Assembly: GCA_963704725.1 (NCBI GenBank)
Contig: OY969934.1
Span: forward strand, 672,001 to 736,000
Direction: 5' to 3'
DNA: 64,000 bases
From: an uncultured Actinomycetes bacterium
Lineage (GTDB): Bacteria > Actinomycetota > UBA4738 > HRBIN12
Shown here: positions 42,287 to 58,500 of the stretch, piece after piece
Layout of the letters: each line of letters opens with the position of its first letter
Position numbering within the stretch: position 1 is the stretch's first letter
Program-made: the position numbers and the translations under genes
Notes under the pieces: model-generated
The model's input: only the letters and a program-made list of their open reading frames with translations
Database searches by the model: none
Told to the model about the DNA's origin: nothing

Positions 42287-42287
42287 G

Positions 42288-42793: not shown

Positions 42794-44863
42794 GTGAGCT
42801 CCGAGACCACCGAGCGGGCCACGCGGCTCCTCGAGGCGATCGCGGGGCCCGGCTCCCGACCGCGACCGGGCCAGCTCGAGGCGATCGAGGCGGTCGCCGG
42901 CCGCCGTGGCCGCGTGCTCCTCGTCCAGCGGACCGGGTGGGGCAAGAGCGCCGTGTACTTCGTCGCCACGCGGCTCCTCCGTGACGCCGGCGCCGGGCCG
43001 ACGTTGCTCGTATCCCCGCTCCTGGCCCTGATGCGGAACCAGATCGAGATGGCGAACCGAGCGGGAGTGGTGGCCGAGACCATCAACAGCTCGAATCGCG
43101 AGGAGTGGGAGCGGGTCCGCGGCGCGCTCGAGGACGGCCGCGTCGACCTTCTCCTCGTCTCGCCCGAGCGGTTCAACAACCTCGAGTTCCGCGACGACGT
43201 GCTTCCCGCGCTGGCCGGCGCCACCGGGCTGCTCGTGGTGGACGAGGCCCACTGCATCAGCGACTGGGGGCACGATTTCCGGCCCGACTACCGGCGGCTG
43301 GTACGGGTCCTCGACCTTCTTCCGCGCGGCGTCCCGATCCTGTGCACGACGGCGACCGCGAACGACCGCGTCATCGCCGACGTCACCGAGCAGCTCGGCA
43401 GCGACCTGGAGACGTTCCGCGGCACCCTGGAGCGGGAGAGCCTCGCGCTGTCCGTCGTCGACCTGCCCTCGCAGCCGGACCGCCTGGCGTGGCTCGCCCG
43501 GAACGTCCCCGCGTTCGTCGGGAGCGGGATCGTCTACTGCCTCACGATCCGCGACACGGAGCGCGTGGCCGAATGGCTCACATCCCAGGGCATCCATGCC
43601 GTCGCGTACAGCGGCGGGACCGAGAACGAGGAGCGCGAGCGGGTCGAGGCCGACCTGCTCGCGAACCGCGTGAAGGTCGTCGTCGCCACGTCGGCGCTCG
43701 GCATGGGGTTCGACAAGCCCGACCTCGCCTTCGTCGTGCACTTCCAGTCGCCGGGCTCGCCGATCGCCTACTACCAGCAGGTCGGCCGGGCGGGCCGCGC
43801 CCTCGACCACGCGCCGGCGGTGCTCCTGCGAGGCAACGAGGACCGGGACATCCAGGACTACTTCATCCGGACCGCGTTCTCCCCGCGGCGGCAGGCGGAG
43901 CAGGTGATCGAGCTGCTCGCCGAGCACGCGCGTCCGATGACCGTCGCAGAGATCCTCGCGCACGTGAACGTCCGTCGGTCCCGACTCGAGGCGATGCTCA
44001 AGATCCTCGAGGTCGAGGGGGCGATCGCCCGCCGGGACCGAGGGTGGATCCGCACGCTCCAGCCGTGGACCTACGACGCCGCGCGCGTCGAGGCGGTCAC
44101 GGCCACGCGACGGGCCGAGCAGGCCGCGATGGAGGAGTACGCGACCACGCCGGGATGCCTGATGGAGTTCCTCCGGCGGGAGCTCGACGACCCGGGCGCC
44201 GAGCCCTGCGGGCGATGCGCGAACTGCACTCGAGTGCCGCCGCCGTCGGCGGTCGATCCGGAGCTCGCCGAGGCCGGTCGCGGGTACCTGCGCTCGAGAT
44301 CGATCGCGGTCGAGCCGAGGAAGATGTGGCCCACCGGCCTGGACGACCTCCGCGGCCGGATCCCGGCGGAGTCGCTCCTCGAGCCGGGGCGGGCGCTCTG
44401 CGTCTACAACGACGGAGGGTGGGGCGAGCTCGTGCGCGAGTCGAAGCTGCACGGGACGGCCTTCCCGGACGAGCTCGTCGAGGCGTCGGCCCGGCTGATC
44501 ACGCGCGTGTGGCGACCGGACCCGGCGCCGGAGTGGGTGACGGCGGTGCCGTCGCAGCTCCACCCGGAGCTCGTGCCGGGGTTCGCCGAGCGCCTGGCCG
44601 GCGCGCTCGGGCTGCCGTTCGTCCTGCCGGCGCGCAAGGCTCGCGAGACCGCCCCGCAGAAGGAGATGGAGAACAGCGCCCAGCAGCTCCTGAACATCCT
44701 CGATGAGTTCGAGGTCGCGAGTCGCGTGCCGTCGGGACCGGTCCTGCTCGTCGACGACATCCGCGACTCGGGATGGACGCTGACCGTGCTCGGCCGGCAG
44801 CTGCTCGAGGCCGGGAGCGGGCCCGTGTACCCGTTCGTGCTCGCCGTCGCGGTGAGCGCATGA
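42794..44863 (+). CDS. rqlH: RecQ-like helicase with tetracysteine and C-terminal PRTase-like domain (RqlH clade)
   Basis: TGWGKS, DEAHCISDWGHDFRPDY, TAT, QVGRAGR, C..CGRCANC, LLVDDIRDSGWT. Confidence 0.85.
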   Translation: MSSETTERATRLLEAIAGPGSRPRPGQLEAIEAVAGRRGRVLLVQRTGWGKSAVYFVATRLLRDAGAGPTLLVSPLLALMRNQIEMANRAGVVAETINSSNREEWERVRGALEDGRVDLLLVSPERFNNLEFRDDVLPALAGATGLLVVDEAHCISDWGHDFRPDYRRLVRVLDLLPRGVPILCTTATANDRVIADVTEQLGSDLETFRGTLERESLALSVVDLPSQPDRLAWLARNVPAFVGSGIVYCLTIRDTERVAEWLTSQGIHAVAYSGGTENEERERVEADLLANRVKVVVATSALGMGFDKPDLAFVVHFQSPGSPIAYYQQVGRAGRALDHAPAVLLRGNEDRDIQDYFIRTAFSPRRQAEQVIELLAEHARPMTVAEILAHVNVRRSRLEAMLKILEVEGAIARRDRGWIRTLQPWTYDAARVEAVTATRRAEQAAMEEYATTPGCLMEFLRRELDDPGAEPCGRCANCTRVPPPSAVDPELAEAGRGYLRSRSIAVEPRKMWPTGLDDLRGRIPAESLLEPGRALCVYNDGGWGELVRESKLHGTAFPDELVEASARLITRVWRPDPAPEWVTAVPSQLHPELVPGFAERLAGALGLPFVLPARKARETAPQKEMENSAQQLLNILDEFEVASRVPSGPVLLVDDIRDSGWTLTVLGRQLLEAGSGPVYPFVLAVAVSA

Positions 44864-44884
44864 GCCGCGTAGGGTGGTGATCGG

Positions 44885-45832
44885 ATGGCCCGACGACGCG
44901 ACGACGCGCTCGCCTCGCTCCTCCTCACGAACCGGCTGACCGAGACGGCGGCGAAGCCGCTCGCCGCGGGGGAGTTCTGGTCCCTGGTCCGGACGGTCGA
45001 GGACCCGGCCCGGCTGCTCGGCCTGGATGCGGCGGGCGTCGCACAGGCCGTGGGATCCACCGTCGCGGAGGCCGAGCGCGTGACGTCGCTGCTCGAGGCG
45101 GGTGCGGCGCTCGCGTTCGAGCTCGAGCGGCTCGAGCAGGAGGGGTTCCGCGTCCTGTCGCCGTTCGACGACGGGTACCCGGAGCGGCTCGTGACGCGGC
45201 TCGGAGACGCGGCGCCGCCGGTCCTCGTCGTGGCAGGTCCGACGTCGCTGCTCGAGCAGGACGGGATCGGGATCGTCGGTTCCCGCGACGTCACACCCGA
45301 AGGCGTCGCGGTCGCCCGCGGCGCGGCGGAGCTCGCGGTGGCCAACGGCCTCGCCGTCGTCTCCGGGGGCGCCCGCGGGGTCGACCAGCAGGCGATGGCC
45401 GCCGCGTACCAAGCGGGCGGGACAGTGGTGGGGGTCCTCGCCGAGTCGCTCCTGCGCCGGGTCCGCGACCCGGAGACCCGGAGGGCGATCGGCGAGGGGT
45501 CCGCGTGCCTCCTCACGCCGTACAAGCCCGACGCCGGGTTCAGCGTCGCGAACGCGATGGGGCGGAACAAGCTGGTCTACGCACTGTCCCGCGTGACGCT
45601 CGTCGTGGCGAGCGACCTCGAGAGCGGCGGGACGTGGGAGGGCGCGAAGGAATCGCTCTCGCGGGGCTACGGCGCCGTCGCGGTGTGGCGCGGAAGCGGG
45701 GCCGGCGCGGGCAACGAGGCGCTGGTCCGACTCGGAGCGACGCCCATCGAAGACGTGGACGAGCTCCCGGCCCTGGAAGCGCGCGAGTCCGAGCCGGTGG
45801 GTGGCACCGAGCAGCTGAAGCTCGGGATGTGA
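44885..45832 (+). CDS. DprA/Smf-like protein (RqlI-like)
   Basis: YPERL..PP.L, IVGSR, VSGGARGVD, AMGRN, GGTW; directly follows rqlH. Confidence 0.85.
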   Translation: MARRRDDALASLLLTNRLTETAAKPLAAGEFWSLVRTVEDPARLLGLDAAGVAQAVGSTVAEAERVTSLLEAGAALAFELERLEQEGFRVLSPFDDGYPERLVTRLGDAAPPVLVVAGPTSLLEQDGIGIVGSRDVTPEGVAVARGAAELAVANGLAVVSGGARGVDQQAMAAAYQAGGTVVGVLAESLLRRVRDPETRRAIGEGSACLLTPYKPDAGFSVANAMGRNKLVYALSRVTLVVASDLESGGTWEGAKESLSRGYGAVAVWRGSGAGAGNEALVRLGATPIEDVDELPALEARESEPVGGTEQLKLGM

Positions 45833-45944
45833 TCTCGCCGGCGGGCCCTGGGTCGGCCGGAGCGTGGCCTCGTGCGAGCCGATCCTCGCCGCTGCGCGCG
45901 CCCGATCGACGTGAGTCGTCGCTCTGCCTCCGTACACTCGGCGC

Positions 45945-46952
45945 GTGCGATTCGGCTACGGTCTGATCACCTGCCAGCGATACCCCGGCGACCCGCGGAC
46001 GGACGCGGATCTGTACCGGGAAGCTCTGGAGCTGGCGGAGGAAGTGGAGCGCTTGGGCTTCGACTCCGTGTGGACCAGCGAGCATCACTTCGCGGACGAC
46101 GCCTACGCACCCTCGCTGCTCACGCTCACGGCTGCCATCGCCGCCCGGACCCGTTCCATCCTGCTCGGGACGGGGCTGCTCCTGGCGCCGCTCTACCCGC
46201 CGCTTCGATTGGCGGAGGACGCAGCGGTGGTGGACCTGCTGTCCGAGGGGCGGTTCATCCTCGGCCTCGGACTCGGGTGGCTCGACTGGGAGTTCGACGC
46301 GCTCGGCGTTCCGTTCGGGGAGCGGGCGAGCCTGACCGAGGAGGCCATCAGGGTCTGCCGTCAGGGCTGGGGCGACGGGCTCGTCGAGGGCCCCGGCGTG
46401 GCGGTGCACCCCAAGCCGATGCGGCCGGGCGGGCCGCCCATCTGGTTGGGCGCCCACGCTGAGCGAGCCGTCCGCCGGGCCGCTCGGCTGGCCGACGGCT
46501 GGATGGCCGGGGAGCCCGACCTCGACGGATTCGCGCTCCGCTTGGCGTGGCTACGTGACGAGGCGACCCGGGCGGGACGTCGGGCCGATGCACTGGAGGT
46601 CGCCGGGTACTGGCCGGTATTCGTGTGGGAGGAGGGCGACGCCTGGGAGCGCGTGCGCCCGTACCACCACTACGTCGACTGGAGGTACGACGACGCCGAG
46701 GGAGCCCGCGGGCGCTTGGGCCCGATCCCGAGCCCGCCGCCGCTCGACGCGGAGAGCGAGGCCGCCCTCCGCGCGACGATGATCTGCGGGTCGCCCAACG
46801 AGGTGGTCGCGCGGATCGCCGAGTACGCCGAGGCGGCCGGACCCGGCTTCCACTTCGTGGCCCGTCTGTACTACCCGGGGATGGACCCAGCCACGATGCG
46901 CGAGTCCACGCGCTTGTTCGCCGAGAAGGTTATCCCGGCACTGCGCGGCTGA
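45945..46952 (+). CDS. Luciferase-like (LLM) flavin-dependent oxidoreductase
   Basis: GFDSVWTSEHHF, RLAED...D.LS.GR..LGLG.G, PPIWLG. Confidence 0.9.
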   Translation: MRFGYGLITCQRYPGDPRTDADLYREALELAEEVERLGFDSVWTSEHHFADDAYAPSLLTLTAAIAARTRSILLGTGLLLAPLYPPLRLAEDAAVVDLLSEGRFILGLGLGWLDWEFDALGVPFGERASLTEEAIRVCRQGWGDGLVEGPGVAVHPKPMRPGGPPIWLGAHAERAVRRAARLADGWMAGEPDLDGFALRLAWLRDEATRAGRRADALEVAGYWPVFVWEEGDAWERVRPYHHYVDWRYDDAEGARGRLGPIPSPPPLDAESEAALRATMICGSPNEVVARIAEYAEAAGPGFHFVARLYYPGMDPATMRESTRLFAEKVIPALRG

Positions 46953-47162
46953 GCGGTCGGACCTCGCCCGGATCGGTCTCGGTTCGGCGGAGCTGGTGAC
47001 ACAGTCGGACCCCATCCCCCAGTAGGGCGCGGTCTTCACCCCCGGCCTGTACGTGGAGCCGAAGCCGCGGATCGAGATGGTGAGAGGTCTGGATGATGGC
47101 GGCCTCTCACGCCCCGGCGCCTGATCCCTCGCATCCCCGACTTCCCAACGCGACAATGGGGC

Positions 47163-47561
47163 ATGGTGACTCGCCGACTAGAAGTGGGCGACCGCGTGGT
47201 GGTCTATGGCGGCTACGATCCGGAGCCCGAGTGGCTGGTCGCGAACCCGGCTGGCTATGTTGGTCGCGTCGTTGAGTTCCTTCCCGGTCAGAACCTGAAC
47301 CTCGCGCCGCTGATCGAACTCGACGACCAGCTCGTGCTCCCCGCCGGAGCTGGGGCCGCGCGAGGAACGGAGGTTCGTGGGCTGTTCCTCGTCCTTGAGC
47401 TCGCGCATCGAGGCACAGACTGGTCCACCCCGACTCCCCGCATCCACGTGGAGCTCTGTGACTTCCGCCCCGAGCCCAAAGCGTGGCCAGATCGTCGCCA
47501 AGGCGCTCGGGTCGAGTCCCACGCGACTTACCGGGTGATCGGGACCGAGAAGGGCCGATAA
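47163..47561 (+). CDS. Hypothetical protein (array gene 1)
   Basis: 132-aa ORF with lower GC; GACAAT just before the ATG. Confidence 0.6.
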   Translation: MVTRRLEVGDRVVVYGGYDPEPEWLVANPAGYVGRVVEFLPGQNLNLAPLIELDDQLVLPAGAGAARGTEVRGLFLVLELAHRGTDWSTPTPRIHVELCDFRPEPKAWPDRRQGARVESHATYRVIGTEKGR

Positions 47562-47642
47562 GTACCCGCGCCCCGGGTGCGAGGCCCCGAGTAGGTATCT
47601 AGAGTCGTGCAGGCGCAGATGACGAGATGACTGGGGACGCAG

Positions 47643-47888
47643 GTGACCGACGAGCCTGAAGTGCTTGACGGACTGGAGGCCCAACGAAAGGCAGCCGGCT
47701 TGCAGGAGCTCGTGTCAAATGAGTACGACTGGACTGCGCTCTACCGCGATCCCGTTTCCGGAACGCTCTGGAAGGAGTCATACCCGTCGCCCGAAACACA
47801 CGGTGGGGGACCGCCTCGACTCGAGATGATCGATCGCCGTCGAGCCCTCTTGGAGTTCGACCTGACAGAGGGCGACCTGGACGAATGA
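47643..47888 (+). CDS. Imm27-like polymorphic-toxin immunity protein (array gene 2)
   Basis: W..LYRDP..G.LW..SYP..E.HGGGPP.L signature. Confidence 0.7.
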   Translation: MTDEPEVLDGLEAQRKAAGLQELVSNEYDWTALYRDPVSGTLWKESYPSPETHGGGPPRLEMIDRRRALLEFDLTEGDLDE

Positions 47889-47973
47889 GTGAGGTTCCGG
47901 GGGTTCGCGTGACGTCACAAATGTCCACGCGCCCCGGCGCACGCAGCCGCAGACGCTGGACCCTATCCTCACG

Positions 47974-48369
47974 ATGATGACTTCAAGGCCGACCGACCGG
48001 CGGAATGTGACTTGGTTCATCGCCTGGATGCTCACGGGTGCCGGTTATGCCCTTGGAATCCTGGGCGCGCTCTCCATCGGTCCCTATGTCCTGGTCATCA
48101 CGGTGGCAGCCACCATCGTTCTTGCTACCCGCAGGGGATCCAAGGTGGGGCTACCCGGCCTGGTTTCCGGTCTCGGACTCCCACTGTTCTACGTTGCGTT
48201 CTTGAACCGATCAGGGCCTGGAACGGTCTGCACCTCTACCGGTACGAGCCAATCCTGCGTGGATGAATGGAGCCCATGGCCGTGGCTCGCGATCGGGATT
48301 GTGCTGCTGGTGAGCGGGTACGTGTGGTTCGCGAGGACCCACCGGCGTACAGGTGCCGCCGCCCCATGA
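47974..48369 (+). CDS. Small integral membrane protein (array gene 3)
   Basis: About 4 hydrophobic segments and a C-x8-C loop. Confidence 0.65.
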   Translation: MMTSRPTDRRNVTWFIAWMLTGAGYALGILGALSIGPYVLVITVAATIVLATRRGSKVGLPGLVSGLGLPLFYVAFLNRSGPGTVCTSTGTSQSCVDEWSPWPWLAIGIVLLVSGYVWFARTHRRTGAAAP

Positions 48370-48497
48370 CCATGACGCTCTGGGTCACGGTGCTTGAATA
48401 GACCCTGGGCTCTCGCGGGCATGTCCGAGAGACTGTCGGGCTCCAAGAACATTGCCCACGCTCGGGCATCCCAGCGACCTCGACCTAGAGTTGAACT

Positions 48498-48752
48498 ATG
48501 TCTACGGACAGCTACGGCAACCAGATCGTTCGCTACACGGTCCGGATGCAGCTGGAACCTGAGGGCCGGATGGTCGAGTACAGGGCGGTCACCTCTCTCG
48601 GGGAGCTGAAGGCAGCGGCGATGGCGGCGTTGCGACTGCGGTCGGAGGACCCGGAAGCACGATTCGCGTCCATCGAGATCGTGAACACGGAGACCAAGTA
48701 CACGATCGATCCGGAGCGCGACTTGCTCGACTACTTGGGAGGCGTCGACTGA
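48498..48752 (+). CDS. Hypothetical protein (array gene 4)
   Basis: 84 aa; TAGAGT -10 6 nt before the ATG; hairpin ccctgaccc-ccgga-gggtcgggg after the stop. Confidence 0.6.
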   Translation: MSTDSYGNQIVRYTVRMQLEPEGRMVEYRAVTSLGELKAAAMAALRLRSEDPEARFASIEIVNTETKYTIDPERDLLDYLGGVD

Positions 48753-49026
48753 CCCCTGACCCCCGGAGGGTCGGGGTACATCGGCGAACGCTCGCGCACC
48801 ACGGCGTGCCCTTCCTGGACGGCTCGTAGTGTCCACGCGCCCCGGCGCGGGAGGCTTCCACCGTCCCCGACTGACTTCTGGCTCGGTGTACGCAGATGAC
48901 GAGATGACGGCGGATCGAAAAGGTTGGGGATTCTGATGGTCCTGATCCCGAGGAGTCGCGTGGCCCCTGCATCGACCGGCCGCGCGGAGGAACAGTGGCA
49001 CCGGAACGGAGAGGAGATGAACATCC

Positions 49027-49788
49027 ATGCCGGTTCCTGATCCCTCATTCGGTTGGCAGGATGCCACCGCTGCCTTCGCCGTCGTCGCGGTCGTGGCGTT
49101 CCTGGTGACCTGGGTCGTGACGGACCTCGGTCACGTGTCGCGGACTCCCTACGTGGCGATCCTCACACTGACGACGCTCGCCCTTGCGGCTGGCTACCTC
49201 GCTTGGTCGGGCACGTCCGTGGCCGAGCTCGTAACGGCGGGGTGGGTCTGGGGCATCCTCGGGGGTCTGGTCGCAGCTGCGCTGGTCATTCCCCTGGTCC
49301 GTCGGCTGCCCTCAGGACCTCGCCCTGAAGGTTCTCAGCTCGTTGGACGGTTCCTCTGGGAAGGGGGCGTGTACGGCTTCGCGGAAGGAGTCCTACTCGC
49401 AACCCTGCCGGTCCTGGCTGTCTGGCAGGCAACCGACGCGCTCGGCTGGACGGATACCACATGGGCAAAGGTCGGCTCGGGCGCACTCGCGGCGGTCGGA
49501 GCGTTGTTCGTGATCTTGGTCCACCACCTCGGATACCGTGAGTTCCGGGCGAGGGCCGCAAGGAAGATGCTTCGGGGTGCGCTGGTTGCTTGCGGCATCC
49601 AGGCGTTGGCGTTCCTTCTGACGGGAAACGTGCTCGCTCCGGTCGTCGCCCACATCGTGCTCCACGGGGAGCTGACACTCCGCGGCATCGAGATGCCTCC
49701 CACGTCGCATCCGGAGCCGGTTTCCAGTGGCGCAGGCCGCGCGCGGGTCACCAAGGTCCCCGCACCGGAGAAGGAGTCAGTCGCGTAG
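49027..49788 (+). CDS. Multi-pass membrane protein, CAAX/Abi-like motifs (array gene 5)
   Basis: About 7 hydrophobic segments; E-G..L, HH.GY, P.VAH..LH. Confidence 0.6.
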   Translation: MPVPDPSFGWQDATAAFAVVAVVAFLVTWVVTDLGHVSRTPYVAILTLTTLALAAGYLAWSGTSVAELVTAGWVWGILGGLVAAALVIPLVRRLPSGPRPEGSQLVGRFLWEGGVYGFAEGVLLATLPVLAVWQATDALGWTDTTWAKVGSGALAAVGALFVILVHHLGYREFRARAARKMLRGALVACGIQALAFLLTGNVLAPVVAHIVLHGELTLRGIEMPPTSHPEPVSSGAGRARVTKVPAPEKESVA

Positions 49789-49944
49789 GGAAGTCATAGA
49801 ACCCGCATGCGTCAGTGGGTGAAACTCTGCACGCATCCCGGCGCCGTTGGCGGCGACGGAGGTATATGAACTGGTGTCGAAGATCACCTCGCCCTGGGTT
49901 GAAGGTCGAACGTTCGGCCCTGGAAGTACCGAGAGGAGAACACG

Positions 49945-50289
49945 GTGAGCAACGAACAGGCGGCACCTGAGACCAAGGGTGTTGCGGTGGAGTTCCTTGC
50001 AGCGGTTGACCTTGGGCCTGAGATCGAGGGCATGGCAGGGCGCCAACTTCGGATGCGTACGGTGACCATCGAGGCTGGAGGCGTCTTCGGCCCCATCCAC
50101 GACCATGAAGGCAGACCGGGCCTCGTCTACATTCTGCAGGGAACGATCACCGACCATCGAGATGGAGGCGCGACGGACTATGGGCCGGGAGTGGGCTGGC
50201 CCGAGGATAGGAACACCACACACTGGCTCGAGAACAGAGGAACGACTCCGGCGGTGGAGATCTCGGTCGACATCGTCGGGCAAGAGTGA
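49945..50289 (+). CDS. Cupin domain protein (array gene 6)
   Basis: SD GAGGAG; H.H..RP..VYILQG, HWLEN.G. Confidence 0.85.
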   Translation: MSNEQAAPETKGVAVEFLAAVDLGPEIEGMAGRQLRMRTVTIEAGGVFGPIHDHEGRPGLVYILQGTITDHRDGGATDYGPGVGWPEDRNTTHWLENRGTTPAVEISVDIVGQE

Positions 50290-51884
50290 GTGACGCGACC
50301 GGCACCCACAACGTGAGCACGGACGAGGAAACGGGCGCGACGGCGGAGCGGTCCTCGGGCGTGCGGCTGTCAGAGCTCGTCGCCGTCATCTCGTTCTCCT
50401 CCGACTTCGGGCTCGGACAGCCGATGGAGCATGTCCTGCGCTCGTGCCTGATCGCGCTCCGCCTCGCGGATCGCCTCGGCGTCGACGAGGACGGGCGGCG
50501 CGAGATCTACTGGGTCACGCTCCTCGCCCTCGTGTGCACGGGCGAGTCCTTCGAGCTCGCGGGGGTGTTCGGCGACGACGTGGCCTTCCGAGCGGGCATG
50601 TACCACGTCGGGCCGTCGCAGCTCGCGCAGATGCTCTACGTGCTCCGGTCGGCGTCCCCACGCGTGCGAGGGGCCGCGGGGATCGCGTCGAGCGGCGGGC
50701 GGTCGGTCGAGTCGATGTTCCTCGCGCACTGCGCCGTCACGCGCGAGGTGGCGCGGCGTCTCGGGCTCGGCACAGGCGTCGCCGAGGCGCTCTCGCACAC
50801 GTTCGCCCGGTGGGACGGCAAGGGGCTCCCGCGCGGCGTGGTGCCCGAGGACGTGCCGATCTCCGCGCGGGTGATGCAGCTCGCGGACCTCGCCGAGGTC
50901 CATCACCGCCTGCGCGGGATCGAGGGCGCGCTCGAGATGGTGCGGTCGAGGGCGGGCAGGATGTTCCCGCCGGATCTGGCGCGGCGCTTCCTGGACGACG
51001 CGCCGGAGATCCTGGCGGACCTCGACGACTCGGCATGGGACCGCGTCGTGGCCGCCGAGCCGGACCCTCGTCCGCCGCTCACCGAGGACGGGTTCGACGA
51101 GGTGCTCGAGGTCATGGCCGACATCGCCGACCTGAAGTCGCCGTGGTTCGCCGGCCATTCGCGCGGGGTGTCCGACCTCGCCGCGCGCGCGGTGCGCGCC
51201 GCCGGGATGCCGGAGCCCGACGTCGTCACCGTTCGGCGCGCGGGTCTCCTCCACGACCTCGGCCGGACGGCGATCGCGAACAGCCTGTGGGACCGGCGCG
51301 AGGCGCTCACGGACGGCCAGCACGAGCGGATCCGTCTGCACGCGTACTACACCGAGCGCATGCTGCGGCGTCCCGCCGCGCTCGCCGGGCTCGCGGCGAT
51401 CGCGTCGTCGGATCACGAGCGGCTGGACGGGTCGGGCTACCACCGGGGCGCGCGCGGCGCGGACATCCCTCTGCTCGGCCGCTACCTGGCCGCCGCCGAC
51501 GTGTACCACGCGCTGCTCGAGGATCGCCCCCACCGGCACGCCCGCACACCGAAGGAGGCGGCCGCGCACGTGCGGAGCGAGGCCCGGGCGGGGCGGCTCG
51601 ACGGCGCCGCGGTGGACGTCGTCCTCGGGGCGGCCGGCCACCGGCGCACCGGAGCGTCGGCCGCCCCCGCCGGACTCACGGCCAGGGAGGTCGAGGTCCT
51701 CGTCCTCGTCGCGCGCGGGTCGACCACCCGCCAGGTCGCTCGGGCGCTCGGCATCGCGCCGAAGACCGCCGGCAACCACATCGAGCGGATCTACGCGAAG
51801 ATCGGCGCGTCGAGCCGGTCCACCGCGACGCTGTTCGCGATGCGCCACGGCATGCTCGCCACGCTCGAGCCCGTCCGTCCCTGA
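50286..51884 (+). CDS. HD-GYP-like phosphohydrolase fused to LuxR HTH
   Basis: RWDGKG.P, HDLGR, HERLDGSGY, GLTAREVEVL...IYAKIG. Confidence 0.9.
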   Translation: MSDATGTHNVSTDEETGATAERSSGVRLSELVAVISFSSDFGLGQPMEHVLRSCLIALRLADRLGVDEDGRREIYWVTLLALVCTGESFELAGVFGDDVAFRAGMYHVGPSQLAQMLYVLRSASPRVRGAAGIASSGGRSVESMFLAHCAVTREVARRLGLGTGVAEALSHTFARWDGKGLPRGVVPEDVPISARVMQLADLAEVHHRLRGIEGALEMVRSRAGRMFPPDLARRFLDDAPEILADLDDSAWDRVVAAEPDPRPPLTEDGFDEVLEVMADIADLKSPWFAGHSRGVSDLAARAVRAAGMPEPDVVTVRRAGLLHDLGRTAIANSLWDRREALTDGQHERIRLHAYYTERMLRRPAALAGLAAIASSDHERLDGSGYHRGARGADIPLLGRYLAAADVYHALLEDRPHRHARTPKEAAAHVRSEARAGRLDGAAVDVVLGAAGHRRTGASAAPAGLTAREVEVLVLVARGSTTRQVARALGIAPKTAGNHIERIYAKIGASSRSTATLFAMRHGMLATLEPVRP

Positions 51885-51898
51885 CGCCCCGCCCGGCG

Positions 51899-51918
51899 CA
51901 TGAGGAGAACTCCTCATG
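51899..51918. promoter_or_regulatory. Perfect inverted repeat, probable operator of the HD-LuxR protein
   Basis: CATGAGGAG-AA-CTCCTCATG upstream of TAGCGT (51939-51944) and the cupin gene. Confidence 0.65.
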
Positions 51919-51990
51919 ACGCGCTCTCGGGCTCTCCCTAGCGTGCGACGCATCCCCGGGGGTGTCCCGGGGCCGACGAGAGGAGGAGCG

Positions 51991-52374
51991 GTGACGGCGA
52001 CCGCGAGGAGCTTCGAGCAGCCGGACGACACGACGCGCTTCGCCAACGGCGAGCAGCGGATCGTCCACGTGATGGGCGCGCCCGTGGGCTTCGCCACGTT
52101 CCGGCCCGGGTGGCGGTGGTCGAACGACATCCGCCCGCTGGCCGGCACCGATCGGTGCCGCGCGCATCACGCCGGCTACGTCCTCGCCGGCAGGTTGCAC
52201 GTGGAGCCGCTCGACGGCCCGCCGGTCGAGCTGGCTGCGGGGGACGTGTTCGAGATCGCCCCGGAGCACGACGCGTGGGTGGTCGGGGACGAGGCGTGCG
52301 TGCTGATCGACTGGTTCGGCACGGCGGACGCGCCCGCACGCCCGACCGCGGAGCGCGCGGGAGCACGGCGATGA
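51991..52374 (+). CDS. Cupin domain protein
   Basis: SD GAGGAGGAG; PGWRWS, C.A.H.GY, P.HDAWVVG. Confidence 0.88.
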   Translation: MTATARSFEQPDDTTRFANGEQRIVHVMGAPVGFATFRPGWRWSNDIRPLAGTDRCRAHHAGYVLAGRLHVEPLDGPPVELAAGDVFEIAPEHDAWVVGDEACVLIDWFGTADAPARPTAERAGARR

Positions 52375-52892
52375 GCGGCACGCCGGCCACCCTGACGTTC
52401 CGCCTCTCGGTCCCGACCACGGCATCGCCCGCCGTCGTCTACCACCACCTCGCGGACCTCGGATCGCACCTCGTCTGGGCGGGGGAGCGGGCCCCTCGGA
52501 AGAGCTTCCGCCTGCTGACGATCGAAGCTCAGAGCCGCGCGGCGACCGTCGGCGAGCGGTTCTCCTCGAGCGGCGCGAACAGCAACGGGACCTTCTACGA
52601 CCGGTCCGTGGTGGTCGAGGCCGATCCCGGTGCGCGCCTCGGGTTCGACACCGAGTCGACGCTCGACCGCAAGCACGGCACGACCTGGCACGCCAGGTTC
52701 GCGCACCGCTACACGATCGAACGCTCGGGTGAGGGGGCGGTGGTCGCGTACGCGGCCGAGGTCCGGCCGCAGAACTACGTCCCGTACTGGCTGAAGCCGG
52801 GGATGCGCAGGGTGACGCGCGTCATGGTGCAGTCGATGATGCGCCGGAACCTCCGGAACCTCGTGGCGATGGCGGAGGCGTCGGAGGGCTAG
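52371..52892 (+). CDS. SRPBCC/polyketide cyclase-like protein
   Basis: ATGA overlap; ASP..VY..LADL..H..W and C-terminal helix. Confidence 0.65.
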   Translation: MSGTPATLTFRLSVPTTASPAVVYHHLADLGSHLVWAGERAPRKSFRLLTIEAQSRAATVGERFSSSGANSNGTFYDRSVVVEADPGARLGFDTESTLDRKHGTTWHARFAHRYTIERSGEGAVVAYAAEVRPQNYVPYWLKPGMRRVTRVMVQSMMRRNLRNLVAMAEASEG

Positions 52893-54166
52893 GAGGTCCC
52901 GGCGAGCCCGTCGATCATGGCCGCCGGCACCCCGGACGCGTCGCAGGGATCGGGGCGCTCGCGCGGGGACAGGAGCTCCGCTATCGCGTCCCCGCCCTCG
53001 CGGGCCCCGAACACCTCGCCGTCGCGCCGCGCCCACAGCCACACGAGCCAGCCCTCGAAACCGTACGCGCACGAGTCGGCCTGCCAGTGGGCGAGAGCCC
53101 GGGCGCCGGCCGCGGCGTCGGCGTACGCGAAGCGGAACGCGCCGAACTCGCCCATGACGACCGGCATCTCGACCGCGTCGGACAGCCCGATCGCCGCCAC
53201 CTGTTCCGGGAGGTCGTGCCCCACCCCGGGGTACAGGTGCAGGTCCGCCAGGTCGAGGGCGGAGGACTCGAGCATCGACCTCGAAGGCACGATCCGCGGG
53301 TCGTCGCCGAGCTGCGCGAAGAACCCCATCGTGACGAGGGCGCCGGGATCGAGCCGGCGGATGGCCGCGCGGACCCGCTCCGTCGCCACGCGCACGTTCG
53401 ACTCGACCATCGCCTGCTTCTGCGCGGGGTTCGTCATGTCGTAGGTCTCGCCGTCGGCGGTCGTGACCGATCCCGACGTCAGCGACAGGGGCTCCACGTC
53501 GGCCAGGACGAACTGCTCCTGCTGGATCTCGTAGATCACGACCTCGAGCGGGGCGTGTTGCCGGCGCAGGGCCCGGATCACCTCGGTCCAGTACTCGACG
53601 AGCAGGTCGTGGCCCTCGGGCGCCAGCCACAACGAGTTGCGATAGCCGCCGAACGGGCTGCAGCAGGGCAGTCGGTCCGAGTACCCGCGGTCCGGGACGT
53701 CGACCGAGGCGAGCATCACCACGATCCCCTGGGCCCGGGCCATGCGGAGGAAGTCGGCGACGTTGCTCGCGTACGCCGGGCGGATCGATCCGTTCGCCGT
53801 GGAGATGCAGTCCACCCGGCACAGGTCGAGGAACACCCGCACCGTGTCGTAGCCGAGGGCGCGCATCCGTCGGAGCTCGCGACGGATCGCCGCCGGGTCC
53901 CAGTCGCGCGGGCGGAACAGGCCGCTCGCGACGTGGTCGCCCTCGCGGACCTTCATGAGCAGGTTCGCGCCGCGGGGGACGAACCGGTCGCCCGTGCGGC
54001 GGTCGAACAGCTCTCGCACGCCGTCGGCGCGCTCGCGGACGCCGATCCAGTGGCGGTCGCTTCGGGCGGCCGGCGCCGCCGCGGCCGAGAGCAGGGACGC
54101 GGTGAGCGCCACCACCAGCACGAGGGTGACCCGACGGCGCACGGTCGAGGGGGAGCGTAAGCCCAT
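52889..54166 (-). CDS. Secreted GH-A clan glycoside hydrolase (GH5-like)
   Basis: Signal peptide; RGAN, GYDTVRVF, DLHLYP, VVMGEFG. Confidence 0.75.
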   Translation of the reverse strand: MGLRSPSTVRRRVTLVLVVALTASLLSAAAAPAARSDRHWIGVRERADGVRELFDRRTGDRFVPRGANLLMKVREGDHVASGLFRPRDWDPAAIRRELRRMRALGYDTVRVFLDLCRVDCISTANGSIRPAYASNVADFLRMARAQGIVVMLASVDVPDRGYSDRLPCCSPFGGYRNSLWLAPEGHDLLVEYWTEVIRALRRQHAPLEVVIYEIQQEQFVLADVEPLSLTSGSVTTADGETYDMTNPAQKQAMVESNVRVATERVRAAIRRLDPGALVTMGFFAQLGDDPRIVPSRSMLESSALDLADLHLYPGVGHDLPEQVAAIGLSDAVEMPVVMGEFGAFRFAYADAAAGARALAHWQADSCAYGFEGWLVWLWARRDGEVFGAREGGDAIAELLSPRERPDPCDASGVPAAMIDGLAGTS

Positions 54167-54203
54167 CGCTCGTTGGGGCGACATCTGATAATCTGATTCC
54201 GTG

Positions 54204-54455
54204 ATGAAGGACATCTCGGCGACGGACGCCGCTCGGAACTTCTCCGACCTGCTCGACTCGGTCGAACACGGGCACGAGAGCTTCGTCGTGACGAGGGGTG
54301 GGCACCCCGTGGCTCGGATCGTCCCCGCGGAGGCGGCGTCGGGAAGGGCCGTGAAGGACCTGCTCGATCGCCATGCGCCGGATCCCGGATGGTCCGCGGA
54401 TCTGGCGGAGCTGCGGTCCCTGCTGGTCACCGAGGAGCGCGACTGGACCGCCTGA
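54204..54455 (+). CDS. Phd/YefM antitoxin
   Basis: ISATDAARNFSDLLD.V....VVTRGGHPVARI; ATCTGAT direct repeat upstream. Confidence 0.9.
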   Translation: MKDISATDAARNFSDLLDSVEHGHESFVVTRGGHPVARIVPAEAASGRAVKDLLDRHAPDPGWSADLAELRSLLVTEERDWTA

Positions 54456-54838
54456 TCCTCGACACGACCGTGCTCGTGTCCGCCGAGCGCCGTCGCCGCC
54501 GGATCCAGCAGGCGATCGGCGACGACGACGACGTGGCCATCGCCGCGATCACCGCCGCCGAGCTCCTGGTGGGGGTCGAGCTCGCCGACCGTCGGCACCG
54601 GTCGCCGCGCGAGGCCTTCGTCGGCGAGCTTCTCGAAACGCTGACCGTGGAGGACTACTCGCTCGCCACCGCCCGAGCCCATGCGCGCCTGCTCGCGTTC
54701 GCGCGCTCGTCCGGGCGACCGCGGGGCGCCCACGACTTGATGATCGCCGCAGCGGCGGTCGCCTCAGACCGTATCCTCGTGACCGCGGACGGCCGCGGAT
54801 TCGCGGAGCTCCCCGGGGTCGAGGTCCGCGTGGTCTGA
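54443..54838 (+). CDS. vapC: PIN-domain toxin (VapC), probable CTG start
   Basis: LILDTT, TAAEL..G, HDLMIAA.A, VTAD; SD GAGGAG 5 nt before CTG 54443. Confidence 0.88.
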   Translation: MDRLILDTTVLVSAERRRRRIQQAIGDDDDVAIAAITAAELLVGVELADRRHRSPREAFVGELLETLTVEDYSLATARAHARLLAFARSSGRPRGAHDLMIAAAAVASDRILVTADGRGFAELPGVEVRVV

Positions 54839-54857
54839 AGCGAGGGAATGGGTCGGG

Positions 54858-55592
54858 CTATCGCCAGTCGACCGTGACGACCTCGACCGGCTCGGAGATG
54901 CCGCGGACCTGGACCTCGCGCGGCTCCGACGTCTCGTAGCGCGATCCCGCCGCCGTCGCCTTGCTCGCCACGATCTCGCCCCCGGCCGCGAGCGCGGCGA
55001 TCCGGGAGGCCTCGTGGACGCCCTTGCCGGTGAAGTTCTTGCCCACCTGCGTCGCCCCCGCCGCGTGCACGCCGACTCTCACGTTCGGCGCGAACCCGGC
55101 CTTGGCACGGTGATCGGCCAGCCGCCGCTGGATCGCCACGGCGCACGCCAGCGCCTCGTCCGGTGAGTCGAACCCGACGAAGAAGCCGTCGCCCGTCCCG
55201 ACGATCTCCTCGCCGCGGTGGTCGGTGAACAACCCACGGAGCGTCTCGTCGTGCCAGCGGAGGACGTTCTGCCAGGCCTCGTCGCCGAGCGCCTCGACCA
55301 GGTTCGTCGAGCGCTCGATGTCGGTGAACATGAACGTCTTCTGGACCCGGCGCGGCGCCTCCTTGCCGCGGAGCTGCCACGGCAGCAGGTCCGCGACCTC
55401 CTCGACCTCGACCGCGGCCGTGGGACACGCGAGCGCCGCCGTGCGCAGCAGCTCCTCGTCCACGCTCGCCGCGTCGGCCACGTCGGCCTTGGCGAAGTCA
55501 CCCTCCAGCCAGTCGAACGCCGTGGGTGCGATCGTGATGCAGTTGCCGGCCCCGATGCACCGATGCCGGTCGATCCGGGCCCGCAACGCCAT
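54858..55592 (-). CDS. Ferredoxin - class III nucleotide cyclase fusion
   Basis: CIGAGNC...CP ferredoxin, then FTDIERST, GDG, RVGVH, VHEASR; ATG overlaps upstream TGA. Confidence 0.85.
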   Translation of the reverse strand: MALRARIDRHRCIGAGNCITIAPTAFDWLEGDFAKADVADAASVDEELLRTAALACPTAAVEVEEVADLLPWQLRGKEAPRRVQKTFMFTDIERSTNLVEALGDEAWQNVLRWHDETLRGLFTDHRGEEIVGTGDGFFVGFDSPDEALACAVAIQRRLADHRAKAGFAPNVRVGVHAAGATQVGKNFTGKGVHEASRIAALAAGGEIVASKATAAGSRYETSEPREVQVRGISEPVEVVTVDWR

Positions 55593-58500
55593 CAGATCAC
55601 CTCCCGGAACGCGTACGCCGTGGCCTCGGCTCGCGACGGCGTGCCGAGCCTCGCGTACAGCTCGGCCAGCCGGCTCGCCACCTCGGCCTCGCCGAGGCCG
55701 AGCTCCTCGGCGATCTCTCGGTCGGTGCGGCCCGCAACGAGCCCGCCCAGCAGCGCGACCTCCTGTTCGTCCAGCTCGGCCGGCCCGATGCCCTGGACCC
55801 CGTCCGCCGCGATGGGGCCGACCAGGCGGGCCAGCGCGCCTCCCGTCGAGCCCCGGAGCCACCGTGCCCGGACCTCGGGGTCGACCGTGCGCTGCGCGAT
55901 CAGCACGAGCGTCAGGCGCAGGTAGTCGACGACGCCCGCGCGCTCCTCCTCGGTCCCGCCCTCGACGATGGCCCGCGCGGCCGGGAGCACGATCTCGAGC
56001 GACACGTCCTCGTGCGCCGAATCCTGGAGGCTCTGGACCGCCGAGCGGGCCGCCTCCACCGCCTGCTCGACGCGGCCCCGCGCCAGCTCCACCATGGCCA
56101 TCGCCGCGTCGGCCTGGGCCGGCCACGGCGGGTGGCCCGGGAGCTGCGACGCGAGCGAGCGCACCTCGAGCGCCGCCGTCTCGGCCGCGCCGAGGAGCTC
56201 CTCGTCGCCGCCGGCCTCGCCGAGGCGGGCCGCCTCCACCGCCAGCCGGCCGAGGGCCTCGCACCGCGCCGCGGTCTGGCCTTGCGCGGCGGCGAGCTCG
56301 ATCGCCCGCTCGAAGTGCCGGCGCATCTCGTTGGCGTCGCCGGCCGCGGCGTGCACGAGCGCCCGCCACAGCTCGAGCTGTCGGGTGCGGAACGCCGTCG
56401 GCGCGTCCGACGCGGCGGCCTCGGCGCGGGCGAGCCATTCGCGGGCGCCCACGACGTCGTCCAGATCCAACCACGCCATCGCCGTCCCGCCGGCCGAGAG
56501 GAACTCGAAGCCCTTGTCGCCGATCACCTTGGCCTGGCGGTACGCCTCCTCGCCGCGCGAGACGGCGAGGTCGGGGATGACCTTGGCCCGCGCGAACACG
56601 TGCGTCCCGAAGACCATCTGCCACTCGGAGATCGCGCGCTCGCTGCCCTTCGTGAACGACTTGATGTTCGTCCACAGCCGGCGGATCTCCTCGATGTGGT
56701 GGCCGGCGCCCGAGCCCAGGTGGATGTCGGCGCCCCAGCTCAGGACGCCCATCGCGATGATCACCGTCATGGCGCCCTGGCGATCGTCGAGGCGCTCGTA
56801 GATCTCGAGCGCCTCGGGGAGCAGGCGCGAGGCCTCCTCGTAGAGGTGCGCCACCGGCGTCTGGCGAACGACCTCCGCCATGGGCATGGACGTCGTCATG
56901 CGCAGGAACTCCTGGTGGGCGCCGTTCATGATCTCCCCGACGAACCAGGCCCGGAACAAGCCGAAGTCGACGACGGCGATCTCGCGGAGCGAGGCGGCCA
57001 GCGCGCGGTCGTCGCCGAGCTCCCGGGCCAGGTCGGCGGCGTGGCGGAAGGCCTCGGCCGCGCCCTCGAGGTCTGCCTCCGTGAACGAGGGCGAGAACAT
57101 CTCGCCGAGCTCGGCGCCCATGAGCGCCTGCCCGAGCTCCAGCGTGGCCGCGAGCTCGAGCCGGCGGTCGCCGCTCGCCGCCGCATCGCCCTGGACCTGG
57201 CGAGCGAGCGTGGCCGACGCCTCGTGCTCCTCGGACTGGCGCAGGGCGGCCGTGCGGCGCAGGCGGACGTCGCGACCGGTGGAGCTCGTGTCGCCGAGCG
57301 CCTCGGCCAGCGCCTCGATCTCGGCGAGGCCCTCAAGTCGGTCGCCGGTGCGGTGGAGCATCTCGAGGGCGTCGTCGCGCGCGATGAGGAGCTGGAGGCG
57401 CTCCTGGGCGCTCGTTGCCGCCGGGAGCGCGAGGTCCACGACGCGCAGGACCTCCTCGGGGGCGCTCGCGCGCAGCGAGTTCTCCGCCGCCTGCAGCGAG
57501 AACCGGACGCAGATCGTCGCGTCGCCCGCCGCCTTCGCGTGGTGAGCGAGGAGCGGGAGGCTCTCGGGCGCCGGCGCGCCGGTCATGAGCAGCTGGACGA
57601 TCGCCTCGTGCACGGCCCGCCGCTTCGAAGGCGAGAGCGAGCCCGTCGCGAACTCGCGCACCTGGTCGTGGGCGAACGAGTAGTCGGCGGCCTCGTCCTT
57701 CGGGAGCTCGAGGAGCAGCCCGGCGGCGACGGCCGGCGCGAGCGCCTCGGCCAGCTCGTCGGTGGACGGTTTCCGGTCGCCCAACCGGACCTCGACCTCC
57801 TCGAGGTCCTTCAGGCTGAACCGGCGCCCGAGGATCGCGGCGAGGGCGAGCGCGCCCATCGTCTCGTCGGGCAGGCGCGCGGCGCGGCGGGAGATGAGCG
57901 TTCGCACCGCGGCGGGGACGAGCTTCTCGGCGCCCTTCGTGAGCGTCCAGACGTCGCCGACGCGCTGGGCCATGCCGGCCTCGCGGTAGGTCTGGGCCAG
58001 CTCGGCCAGGATGAACGGGACGCCCTCGGATTGGCCGTGCATCGTGTTCGCCATCCGCGGGTCGACGGTCCCGCCGAGCACCTCGGCCAGGAAGGTGGCG
58101 CTCTCCGGGTGGCTGAACCTCGACAGTCGGAACCGCCGGACGACGCCGAACCGCTCCATGTCGGCGAGGAGCGTCACGGCCTCGGTGACGAACGCGAGCT
58201 CCTCGGGCCGGATCGTGGCCATGAGCAGGATCGGGCTCGTCGTGACGGCGCGGACGACGTAGCGCATGGCCCGGAGGCTGTCGTCGTCGGCCCACTGGAG
58301 GTCGTCGACGAAGATCGCGAGCGGCTTCGCGGCGGCCAGGTCGCGCAGGGCCACGGCGGCGAGGTCGAACGTCCGCAGGAGCTTCGCGTCCGGCGGGAGG
58401 CCGGCGAGGGAGGGGTCGTCCCGGCCGGACAGTGCGTCGACGGCGGCCGCGAGCGCCGGGACCGACGAGTCGGCGGCGGCCGCGGCTCCCAGGATCGAGC

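Follow-up and report, generated by a model that had tools for sequence, protein, structure and literature searches.

Introduction

Integrons are the textbook device for the serial capture of single genes, and their attC sites, structured imperfect palindromes with R''/L''-L'/R' boxes and a GTTRRRY core, are conserved in structure rather than in sequence. Serine-recombinase sites, such as res site I and the att sites of large serine recombinases, are dyads in which an asymmetric central dinucleotide of 2 bp sets the polarity. Arrays that lack an adjacent integrase are known as CALIN from a 2016 survey, and that survey reports no complete integron in Actinobacteria (Cury et al. 2016, PMC4889954). 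In Bacteroidales, the recombinase-associated acquired interbacterial defence clusters (rAID-1) are defined by an XerD-like recombinase gene that heads the cluster at its 5' end, and they combine co-directional genes of skewed GC content and orphan immunity genes with repetitive intergenic sequences called 'reminiscent of integrons' (Ross et al., 10.1101/471110). The pdif modules of Acinetobacter plasmids are described as modules bounded by short sites and moved by the host XerC/XerD without a recombinase of their own (PMC7399989).

Here we analyze a row of small genes within a window of 64,000 nucleotides (the whole stretch of DNA under study) from an uncultured soil actinobacterium. We consider it likely that this row of genes is an integron-like array of mobile single-gene cassettes that are joined by conservative site-specific recombination. 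The array would work like an integron but with a different site and without an integron integrase. The initial annotation had already proposed integron-like serial capture at a shared intergenic motif, and that reading is supported by clusters of the site throughout the family and by breakpoints that fall within it. We also put forward, with somewhat less than even confidence, the narrower proposal that this soil Actinomycetes family possesses its own capture system that has a platform of about 42 nt, an exchange at a central CC and no dedicated integrase, being served instead by XerC/XerD or by an unrecognised recombinase. We found no published description of such arrays in the literature, and the results point to an undescribed gene-capture system that lacks an integron integrase in an uncultured family of soil actinobacteria.

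The array and its sites

The features of the array, in window coordinates and in order along the plus strand, are as follows.

47048..47082, plus strand: degenerate remnant of a gene for a CpaF/TadA-type secretion ATPase, immediately left of the first site
47092..47140, plus strand: first-type (platform) site, left arm GATGATGGCGGCCT; R1 match of 17.4 bits
47163..47561, plus strand: cassette 1 gene, 132 aa, without a family match
47562..47585, plus strand: decayed cassette-type site GTACCCGCGCCCCGGGTGCGAGGCC; no R1 match
47614..47631, plus strand: copy 1 of the 18-nt repeat CGCAGATGACGAGATGAC, 5' region of cassette 2
47643..47888, plus strand: cassette 2 gene, 81 aa, Imm27 immunity-protein family
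47912..47959, plus strand: cassette-type site, core 47926-47940; top R1 match of the genome (31.9 bits)
47974..48369, plus strand: cassette 3 gene, 131 aa, hydrophobic, apparently a membrane protein
48498..48752, plus strand: cassette 4 gene, 84 aa, without a family match
48789..48821, plus strand: putative AAA+ ATPase gene fragment, a remnant in the spacer that reads LAHHGVPFLDG
48820..48865, plus strand: cassette-type site, core 48834-48848; R1 match of 30.7 bits
48891-48908: copy 2 of the 18-nt repeat, 5' region of cassette 5
49027..49788, plus strand: cassette 5 gene, 253 aa, hydrophobic, apparently a membrane protein
49813..49861, plus strand: last clear site, core 49830-49844 (CACGCATCCCGGCGC); R1 match of 18.8 bits
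49945..50289, plus strand: Cupin_2 gene, 114 aa; PF07883, E 6.8e-10

The six small ORFs between 47.1 and 50.3 kb are co-oriented and low in GC, just as the initial annotation had described, with a GC content of 64-65% against about 72% around them. In 1-kb bins from 47001 to 50000 the GC fraction is 0.653, 0.637 and 0.654, with neighbouring bins at 0.70-0.76. A host codon-usage model misses five of the six genes and also calls few genes within the arrays of relatives. The motif strings likewise sit at the coordinates first given for them, and the 19-mers at 47922 and 48830 are identical as had been claimed. We describe the site with a sequence model (R1) built on 62 sites from relatives and the window, the alignment of which contains a 15-nt conserved sequence and no GTTRRRY box. 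This conserved core is CACGCGCCCCGGCGC, in which 5-bp inverted arms, GCGCC and GGCGC, surround a central CC whose asymmetry gives the site a polarity. The motif is the spacer motif that was first noticed, but it is also more than that: the core lies within an imperfect palindrome of about 36 nt that has two classes of left arm. Platform or 'first' sites carry the left arm GAYGAYGGCGGCCT, with which the palindrome becomes complete; in cassette sites the left arm is A-rich, for example AAACTTGY. The right arm is weaker than the core and reads roughly GNGNGGCC(GCC). Among 51 cassette-type sites, 47 lie 20-80 nt 3' of the upstream stop codon, with a median of about 43 nt.

Five of the six spacers had been credited with the motif and a sixth with a weak variant. 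Four good copies stand. The copy at 47562 is regarded as decayed because R1 misses it, yet its homologue in a related locus (L013, 11347) is a good site, and the spacer before cassette 4 (48453-48476) holds only a variant without R1 support, so that two of the six spacers are without a working site. The core of the first-type site reads CTCACGC-CCCGGCGC (47106-47120) with 2 nt missing, and its left arm is common to the first sites of arrays in other genera. The CpaF/TadA-type fragment beside it is part of the array platform. Its 35 nt are found within full-length genes that read ...MVNGPDDVYVERKGRIERV... in five related loci (L017-L021), fragments of the same 35 nt adjoin first-type sites in four others (L013, L014, L015 and L016), and a related fragment adjoins the first site of L047.

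The product of cassette 2 matches PF15590 (E 3.4e-14, 52.9 bits, cut-off 27.3). The spacer remnant at 48789..48821, which we take to be the Walker B stretch of an AAA+ ATPase, has matches of 91-94% identity over its 33 nt in four relatives, and in four metagenome runs it is present at high depth with loose ends on both sides. At the right end, the Cupin_2 gene is probably either a sixth cassette or the right border of the array. No site follows this gene and its stop codon overlaps the start of a HD_5+GerE regulator gene (50286-51884). Metagenome contigs break at 49912-49946 and 50282-50287, and one metagenome loose end before 49916 bears a core-like string. The 18-nt repeat has only the two listed copies in the genome, both in the array, and is absent from about 600 kb of related loci.

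As originally noted, the region has neither a tRNA (none was found in 40000-56000) nor an integrase, the PF00589 matches of the genome all lying outside the window. A tRNA-targeting island was consequently rejected for this locus, although the array of L013 does lie in one. There was also no Rfam match at E<=1 in 44000-53000. The -10 elements that had been reported before several start codons were not recovered by a consensus promoter scan, which returned no site and is not tuned to actinobacteria.

Distribution of the site

Taken within the window only, the statistics are weak. If up to three mismatches are allowed, the 19-mer gives 2 matches where 0.34 are expected, and a 15-mer pattern gives 5 where 1.95 are expected; in each case 5 of 100 shuffles reach the observed count. 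Genome-wide statistics are strong. Both exact copies of the 15-mer in the 3.45-Mb genome are in the array, as are three of the seven copies of CACGCNNCCCGGCGC. The 12-mer palindrome by itself is background because the genome holds 17 copies. At E<0.02, R1 has eight matches in three places of the genome, and four of these (47092, 47912, 48820 and 49813) fall within 2.8 kb on one strand between the co-oriented low-GC ORFs.

A scan of the family at E<=0.01 found matches in 95 of 150 genomes and in 28 of 33 genera, with at least five sites in 19 of the genomes. Same-strand clusters comprise up to 18 sites; for example, L026 has 13 sites in 10 kb at spacings of 251-1239 nt (median about 774). In the same order but outside the family only 6 of 71 genomes match, with one match each, and a sample of the phylum outside the order gave only four single weak matches. 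The model scan that had been suggested as a check therefore reveals same-strand clusters across many relatives, whereas other genomes show no more than background.

Exchange of single cassettes at the core

Individual cassettes are shared by different genomes at 92-98% identity, yet their order and their neighbours differ, and the junctions lie within the core. When alignments of at least 85% identity and at least 250 nt between loci of different genomes are considered, eight of nine have an end no more than 17 nt from a core in both partners. For example, cassette 1 (47110-47576) is 98.3% identical over 467 nt to L013:10892-11358, and two genera share a RibD_C cassette at 97.8% identity over 836 nt; both ends lie within cores in each case. 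Cassette 3 recurs in L048 and L049 (95.6% and 98.0% identity to 47928-48222), where it directly follows the gene-5 cassette with the junction within the core, an order and a set of neighbours that differ from those of the window. One and the same cassette can be preceded by a platform site in one genome and, in a different genome, by a cassette site. Homologues of gene 5 with at least 91% amino-acid identity have R1 sites on both sides in L047-L050, only downstream in L045 and only upstream in L064, with only weak matches in L046; more distant homologues (66-85%; L051-L063 and L065) are mostly outside arrays. Contigs from soil, peat and sediment metagenomes also carry single cassettes of the window array with ends at 47928/47937. 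For cassette 3, such contigs start at 47937 or have a first-type left half before 47928, and one metagenome joint runs from 48809 to 47923. Shared single-gene units thus break within the motif, which is what the initial annotation had proposed to look for.

Core variants at positions +1, +6 and +7 travel with the upstream cassette and those at +10 and +14 with the downstream cassette, so that junctions narrow to 2-4 nt at the centre of the 15-nt core. As read from these variants, the crossover is shown to map to the central CC, a position that comes from few junctions and that gene conversion could have blurred. A complete palindrome results in L035 when the left half of the first site is joined to the right half of the last site, and it equals an unoccupied site elsewhere in this genome at 40 of 42 positions (manual count). 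In metagenome contigs of other organisms we saw neither an excised circle nor an empty and occupied pair at one locus, and the genes that flank the window array were not found side by side in any relative. Most of the genomes used are metagenome bins, and some 'within-genome' duplications could therefore be population mixtures.

With the crossover at the central CC, each cassette carries a right half-site, a 5' region of its own and a single gene, together with the left half of the site that follows. Two direct sites are predicted to recombine and release a circle with one hybrid site. This circle would in turn recombine with the platform site and enter the array at its head, and genes would in this way be stacked serially. 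The cassettes may be expressed from short promoters of their own, several as leaderless transcripts, and the recombinase would act in trans.

An unlikely but not negligible alternative is that the motif serves as a regulatory or structural repeat (the operator of a shared regulator, an RNA hairpin or terminator, or a REP-like element) that flanks small genes by coincidence, and that the cassette boundaries arose by homologous recombination between the short repeats after transfer. The site does lie in the places of operators and terminators, 20-80 nt past the upstream stop and a short way ahead of the next start. It is also partly palindromic, and the families tested yielded no dedicated recombinase. 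However, the consensus fold of the sites has only three base pairs without covariation, there is no T-run terminator at the sites, and the core is conserved in those 28 of 33 genera beside unrelated genes. A junction window of 2-4 nt in the core centre is also too short and too precise for RecA-type exchange. The sites are moreover clustered rather than dispersed, and a Y1/RAYT-type transposase (PF01797) was present in none of five genomes. REP/BIME elements as such, which occur in hundreds of dispersed copies along with a RAYT gene, were ruled out, given eight good sites in three places and the same lack of PF01797.

Less probable still is that the units are small non-autonomous transposable elements with the core as their target, which they would duplicate on insertion. 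Arrays would then grow by repeated insertion into the duplicated target, with the transposase encoded elsewhere, for instance in one of the IS elements near some arrays. The same sequence does bound each unit on both sides, IS3-family transposases occur beside or inside the arrays of L013 and L042, and rve_3 genes flank a site in L068. Against this, the units have no terminal inverted repeats beyond the site halves, neighbours exchange left and right site halves as in reciprocal recombination, most array loci examined are without IS elements, and IS110-type genes occur in one of five genomes. It is very improbable that the motif is a GC-rich string that arose by chance in a horizontally acquired island of fixed genes. 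Although the window-only statistics and the 17 copies of the 12-nt palindrome would agree with this, it is contradicted by the model scans of the genome and the family and by the breakpoints within cores.

Search for a recombinase

At the loci examined no recombinase lies beside an array, except for one island integrase of L013 (11501-12547, minus strand) next to a tRNA that inspection by eye, but not ARAGORN, identified as tRNA-Cys. The present genome has just two PF00589 genes, XerC (2.31 Mb) and XerD (2.01 Mb), and these two are the sole tyrosine recombinases in three of five array-bearing genomes (G000, G048 and G018). Resolvase-domain (serine recombinase) genes are absent from three of the five (G048, G018 and G051), and TIGR02249, the integron integrase, scores above its cut-off in none. 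The search for a co-occurring recombinase that was initially suggested turned up no enzyme, in the families tested, that is specific to genomes with arrays; of the recombinases in these families, XerC and XerD alone occur in all five. The housekeeping XerC/XerD pair is consequently our leading guess for the trans-acting enzyme, albeit a doubtful one. The geometry of the site, a dyad with an asymmetric 2-bp centre, would fit a mobile-element serine recombinase equally well. Neither dif patterns nor a palindrome scan near the skew maximum located in the genome a dif site, in which XerC and XerD binding arms would surround a 6-bp centre, and one conserved dif candidate looks like an operator palindrome instead. 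If the host Xer proteins or an unrecognised enzyme do the work, this would show that cassette arrays can arise without a dedicated integrase, and genetic tools for high-GC bacteria would gain a compact new recombination site.

Comparison with described systems

The array shares with integrons its co-oriented and mostly single-gene cassettes of about 0.3-1.2 kb with a recombination site between genes, shuffled and shared cassettes whose junctions are inside the site, and a first site that is distinct from the cassette sites, as attI is from attC. It differs in that there is no IntI gene next to the arrays scanned, that the cassettes seem to carry their own promoters, and that the site, of about 36 nt, has a 15-nt primary sequence but no GTTRRRY-type box or conserved extended stem. 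The lack of an adjacent integrase resembles CALIN (Cury et al. 2016, PMC4889954). As with rAID-1, there are co-directional low-GC genes with intergenic repeats; of immunity genes there are an Imm27 gene in the window, the only one of its six, and a WapI-like gene that adjoins the array of L032. However, no XerD-like recombinase gene adjoins any array examined, the cargo consists less of immunity genes than of small enzymes and membrane proteins, which make up most of it, and neither the phylum nor the repeat sequence is that of the Bacteroidales clusters. Discrete modules in genomes with XerC/XerD as sole tyrosine recombinases recall pdif modules and Xer-exploiting integrative elements, but the sites here are all direct and in long chromosomal arrays. 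A crossover that maps to an asymmetric 2-bp dyad centre is a likeness to serine-recombinase sites, whereas three of five array-bearing genomes have no Resolvase-domain gene.

The finding points to a functional equivalent of integrons in a widespread uncultured soil lineage. If the narrower proposal of a capture system peculiar to the family is true, it would be the first integron analogue of the phylum, and cassette arrays would have been invented independently three times, the other two cases being integrons and the rAID clusters of Bacteroidales. The site is short, is defined by its sequence and can be modelled, so that cassettes could be harvested from metagenomes as is done via attC sites today, which would open up a pool of mobile actinobacterial genes. 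The cassette content is typical of chromosomal integrons, with which it shares GNAT, SnoaL and DinB families, immunity proteins (here Imm27 and WapI) and genes of unknown function; further families among the cargo are RibD_C, YCII, STAS, methyltransferases, nucleotidyltransferases and cyclases.

An array of small low-GC genes in the window

The stretch at 47.1-50.3 kb is probably a cassette array. It contains six co-oriented ORFs of 132, 81, 131, 84, 253 and 114 aa (genes 1 to 6) that have a GC content of 0.64-0.65 versus 0.70-0.76 in adjoining bins, which bears out the initial description of this region as a run of small, co-oriented, low-GC genes. A known family is matched by just two of the proteins, the second (Imm27, an immunity protein) and the sixth (Cupin_2), and NCBIfam and PADLOC searches with all six returned no match. 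A codon-usage model trained on the source genome (G000) misses five of the six genes and makes few calls within the arrays of relatives, in keeping with a foreign origin. Landmarks of the array and its flanks are as follows.

Features of the window array and its flanks
Left flank: luciferase-like monooxygenase gene
47048-47082: degenerate remnant of the 5' part of a CpaF/TadA-type ATPase gene, immediately left of the first site
47614-47631 and 48891-48908: 18-nt exact repeat CGCAGATGACGAGATGAC, one copy each in the 5' region of cassette 2 and that of cassette 5
48789-48821: conserved 33-nt stretch in the spacer ahead of the 48830 site
From 49945: cupin gene, its stop codon overlapping the start of the regulator gene
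Up to 51884: right flank, HD_5+GerE (LuxR-type) regulator gene with a GTG start, 532 aa

A tRNA search of the array region found none, in agreement with the initial annotation. The segment at 47048-82 was considered as a tRNA 3' end and rejected, as it matches none of the tRNAs of the genome and is instead the CpaF-like fragment. In an empty-site comparison, the two genes flanking the array were found together in none of the relatives. A paralogue of the 532-aa regulator is present at G000:C1:12448-13931. The repeat CGCAGATGACGAGATGAC has no further genomic copy and is absent from ~600 kb of related loci, and the gene-5 cassette in other genomes has a 5' region that differs from that of the window. 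The 33-nt stretch reads LAHHGVPFLDG and is highly conserved across many genomes and metagenomes; we take it to be the probable stranded remnant of an AAA+ ATPase gene. A sigma-70 consensus promoter scan, which is not tuned to actinobacteria and is uninformative on internal promoters either way, returned no sites.

An apparently sequence-defined site between the genes

The motif strings initially recorded in the spacers are all present, at 47104, 47562, 47922, 48830 and 49826. Within the window alone the support for this motif is weak, the observed counts being reached by 5 of 100 shuffles; at the scale of the whole 3.45-Mb genome the evidence is strong. The exact 15-mer CACGCGCCCCGGCGC has only two genomic copies, both of which are in the window array, and seven copies (three in the array) when its two central letters are left free. 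The 12-nt palindrome alone has 17 copies, which is background. From 62 sites in the window and published relatives we built a sequence-only model (R1) that gives eight matches in G000 with E<0.02. Four are in the window array (47092, 47912, 48820 and 49813), three belong to another low-GC array, at 304-310 kb, and one is at 602 kb. Thus the model recovers four of the recorded spacer copies. The copy at 47562 went undetected; its counterpart in a relative (L013:11347) is a good site, so this copy has decayed. The weak variant at 48453 received no support from the scan.

Alignment of the 62 sites and a position matrix define a nearly invariant 15-nt core in which 5-bp inverted arms, GCGCC and GGCGC, flank a central CC. 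The right arm of the site is weaker: it has G at +17 and then GCC at +20 to +22, after which a further GCC is frequent. Two classes are distinguished by the left arm: in the first, or platform, sites it is GAYGAYGGCGGCCT (or ...GGCGGCGG) and completes a long palindrome, and in cassette sites it is A-rich, as in AAACTTGY. The stop codon of the upstream ORF usually lies 20-80 nt ahead of the core (range 3-179 nt, median ~43). The TAA of the A-rich arm was considered as the cassette stop codon and dismissed, as this is true for just 7 of 47 sites. A folded, attC-like site was considered and rejected, the consensus fold having three base pairs only and no covariation to support them. The site therefore looks like one that is defined by sequence and acts as a duplex.

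Cassette boundaries and exchange map to the core

Breakpoints fall at the motif, as a comparison of loci between genomes shows. Among nine alignments of at least 85% identity and at least 250 nt, there are eight in which an end lies no more than 17 nt from a core in each partner, the lone exception being window gene 5 versus locus L014. For example, a RibD_C cassette is shared by two genera at 97.8% identity over 836 nt with cores at both ends, and the arm just upstream of it is of the cassette class in one genome and of the platform class in two others. For window gene 5, close homologues (at least 91% amino-acid identity) have R1 sites on both sides in four loci of relatives (L047-L050). In two of these, L048 and L049, the next cassette after that of gene 5 is the gene-3 cassette of the window (95.6% and 98.0% identity from 47928), with the junction within the core, whereas in the window these two cassettes occur in a different order and with different neighbours. 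In addition, cassette 1 is found at 98.3% identity in a different array with other neighbours in G009, a relative from the same genus. Core variants at +1, +6 and +7 travel with the upstream cassette and those at +10 and +14 with the downstream cassette, which maps the exchange to the central CC.

Distribution and cargo of arrays in relatives

Pattern and model scans of related genomes revealed same-strand site clusters across many genera. Locus L026 has 13 sites within 10 kb at a spacing of 251-1239 nt, and further clusters are present in L028, L030-L033, L035, L036, L038 and L039. At E<=0.01, R1 matches 95 of 150 family genomes and 28 of 33 genera, with at least five sites in 19 of the 150 (maximum 18), these tallies taking in unpublished genomes. 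Beyond the family the scans give single matches: six of 71 genomes in the rest of the order have one each, and a phylum-wide sample yielded just four weak ones outside the order. In fragmented assemblies many matches lie at contig ends, as expected of repeated mobile units. The records of the related loci are titled as uncultured Actinomycetes and are metagenome bins. Separately, L065:3001-3757 is homologous to window gene 5 (68% amino-acid identity) and has a weak site match 1.2 kb upstream. Its contig belongs to a bin whose title, Vicinamibacterales, denotes another phylum, and the explanation is either transfer between phyla or an error in binning.

The genes carried by arrays of relatives include SnoaL-like proteins, GNAT acetyltransferases, methyltransferases, STAS, BrkB, RibD_C, DinB, YCII and DUF1801 proteins, nucleotidyltransferases of the aminoglycoside-modifying families and RTX-repeat proteins, and a WapI-like immunity gene adjoins the L032 array. 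Fusions of an alpha/beta-hydrolase with an adenylate/guanylate cyclase recur as cassettes, often first after the platform site.

Hydrolase-cyclase fusions in loci of relatives
L028:12013-13395, 13558-15162 and 19175-19993: three copies in one locus
L031:7470-8903: one copy
L033:8159-9517: one copy
L036:7244-8659: one copy

The cyclase gene was considered as part of the machinery and rejected: in L033 and L036 it lies between two sites and is thus a common cassette.

Platform, apparently unoccupied site and a second array

The CpaF-type fragment that precedes the first site of the window array also adjoins first sites in several loci of the genus. A longer related left flank, with ~110 nt conserved, is common to L047 and L034, the latter from an unpublished genome. 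A similar fragment was also observed after a cassette-type site in L068, from another family.

Other loci in G000
G000:C1:602061-602104 (L044:3063-3105), minus strand: perfect palindrome GGCCTCGCGCGCC-CC-GGCGCGCGAGGCC with a platform-type left flank
G000:C1:304239-309613 (L042:4240-9614): second, smaller array, four same-strand sites in a stretch of 65-70% GC

The 602-kb palindrome is the third-best R1 match in G000 and looks like an unoccupied platform site. In locus L035, joining the left half of the first site to the right half of the last rebuilds a full palindrome that equals this site at 40 of 42 positions (manual count). A TadE-like gene of a tad pilus locus contains the 602-kb palindrome, which there encodes ...ASRAGAREAAIT..., and the platform may therefore stem from a tad locus. 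The second array is broken by IS3-family transposase genes (L042:5191-8036), and some arrays are interrupted or flanked by transposases of this type.

Candidate recombinases

The initial annotation had suggested a recombinase encoded in trans. Consistent with this, no site-specific recombinase adjoins the array in the array loci scanned, L013 excepted. Recombinase families were examined in five array-bearing genomes.

Recombinase families in G000, G009, G018, G048 and G051
PF00589 (tyrosine recombinases): two genes each in G000, G048 and G018, three in G051, four in G009
Resolvase domain (serine recombinases): six genes in G000, one in G009, none in G048, G018 and G051
Y1 transposase: none of the five genomes
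IS110 type: G000 only
Integron integrase TIGR02249: over the cut-off in none of the five genomes

NCBIfam identifies the two PF00589 genes of G000 as XerC and XerD, and these are the only members of the tested families common to all five genomes. This makes host XerC/XerD the leading guess, albeit a tentative one. A search for a dif site in G000, meant for a comparison of Xer arms and made with sequence patterns and by scanning for palindromes around the skew maximum, gave nothing convincing. An AT-rich 27-mer at G000:C1:2088416-2088442 holds a perfect 16-nt palindrome; it is single-copy, is found with at most three mismatches in five of 41 relatives, including one from another family, and is probably an operator rather than dif. 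A serine recombinase supplied in trans would also suit the arrays, as a dyad with a 2-bp asymmetric centre suits such an enzyme. The L013 array lies within an island that has a generic tyrosine integrase beside a sequence read by eye as tRNA-Cys. This integrase was rejected as the recombinase of the arrays, as it scores far below all curated cut-offs and is absent from the other array-bearing genomes, and the island may be a carrier by which the array moves.

Comparison with known systems

The initial reading of integron-like cassette capture was essentially right, and the observation behind it is real. The window array works like an integron but fails on the two features by which integrons are defined, IntI and attC. 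In a 2016 integron survey, none of the complete integrons was from Actinobacteria (PMC4889954). The rAID-1 elements of Bacteroidales share low-GC co-directional genes and intergenic repeats with the window array; however, rAID-1 clusters have a XerD-like gene at the 5' end, which the window array does not have (10.1101/471110). The pdif modules borrow the host Xer enzymes (PMC7399989), an idea that extends to the window array as a candidate only. A search of full-text literature, with subscription journals and supplements outside its scope, returned no description of such arrays in Actinomycetota.

Cassettes in metagenomes

The plasmid and phage collections searched gave no match to the array, and no public sequencing run contained it whole (best share 0.15). 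Four runs from soil, peat and sediment supplied contigs that we compared with the array, its uncovered parts being uninformative, and single cassettes were found in other contexts. These contigs belong to other organisms and therefore demonstrate cassette reuse rather than excision in the source strain. One contig begins at 47937, loose ends ahead of 47928 carry the platform left half, and a joint of 48809 to 47923 occurs in two runs. The cupin gene is very common in these contigs, with breaks at 49912-49946 and 50282-50287.
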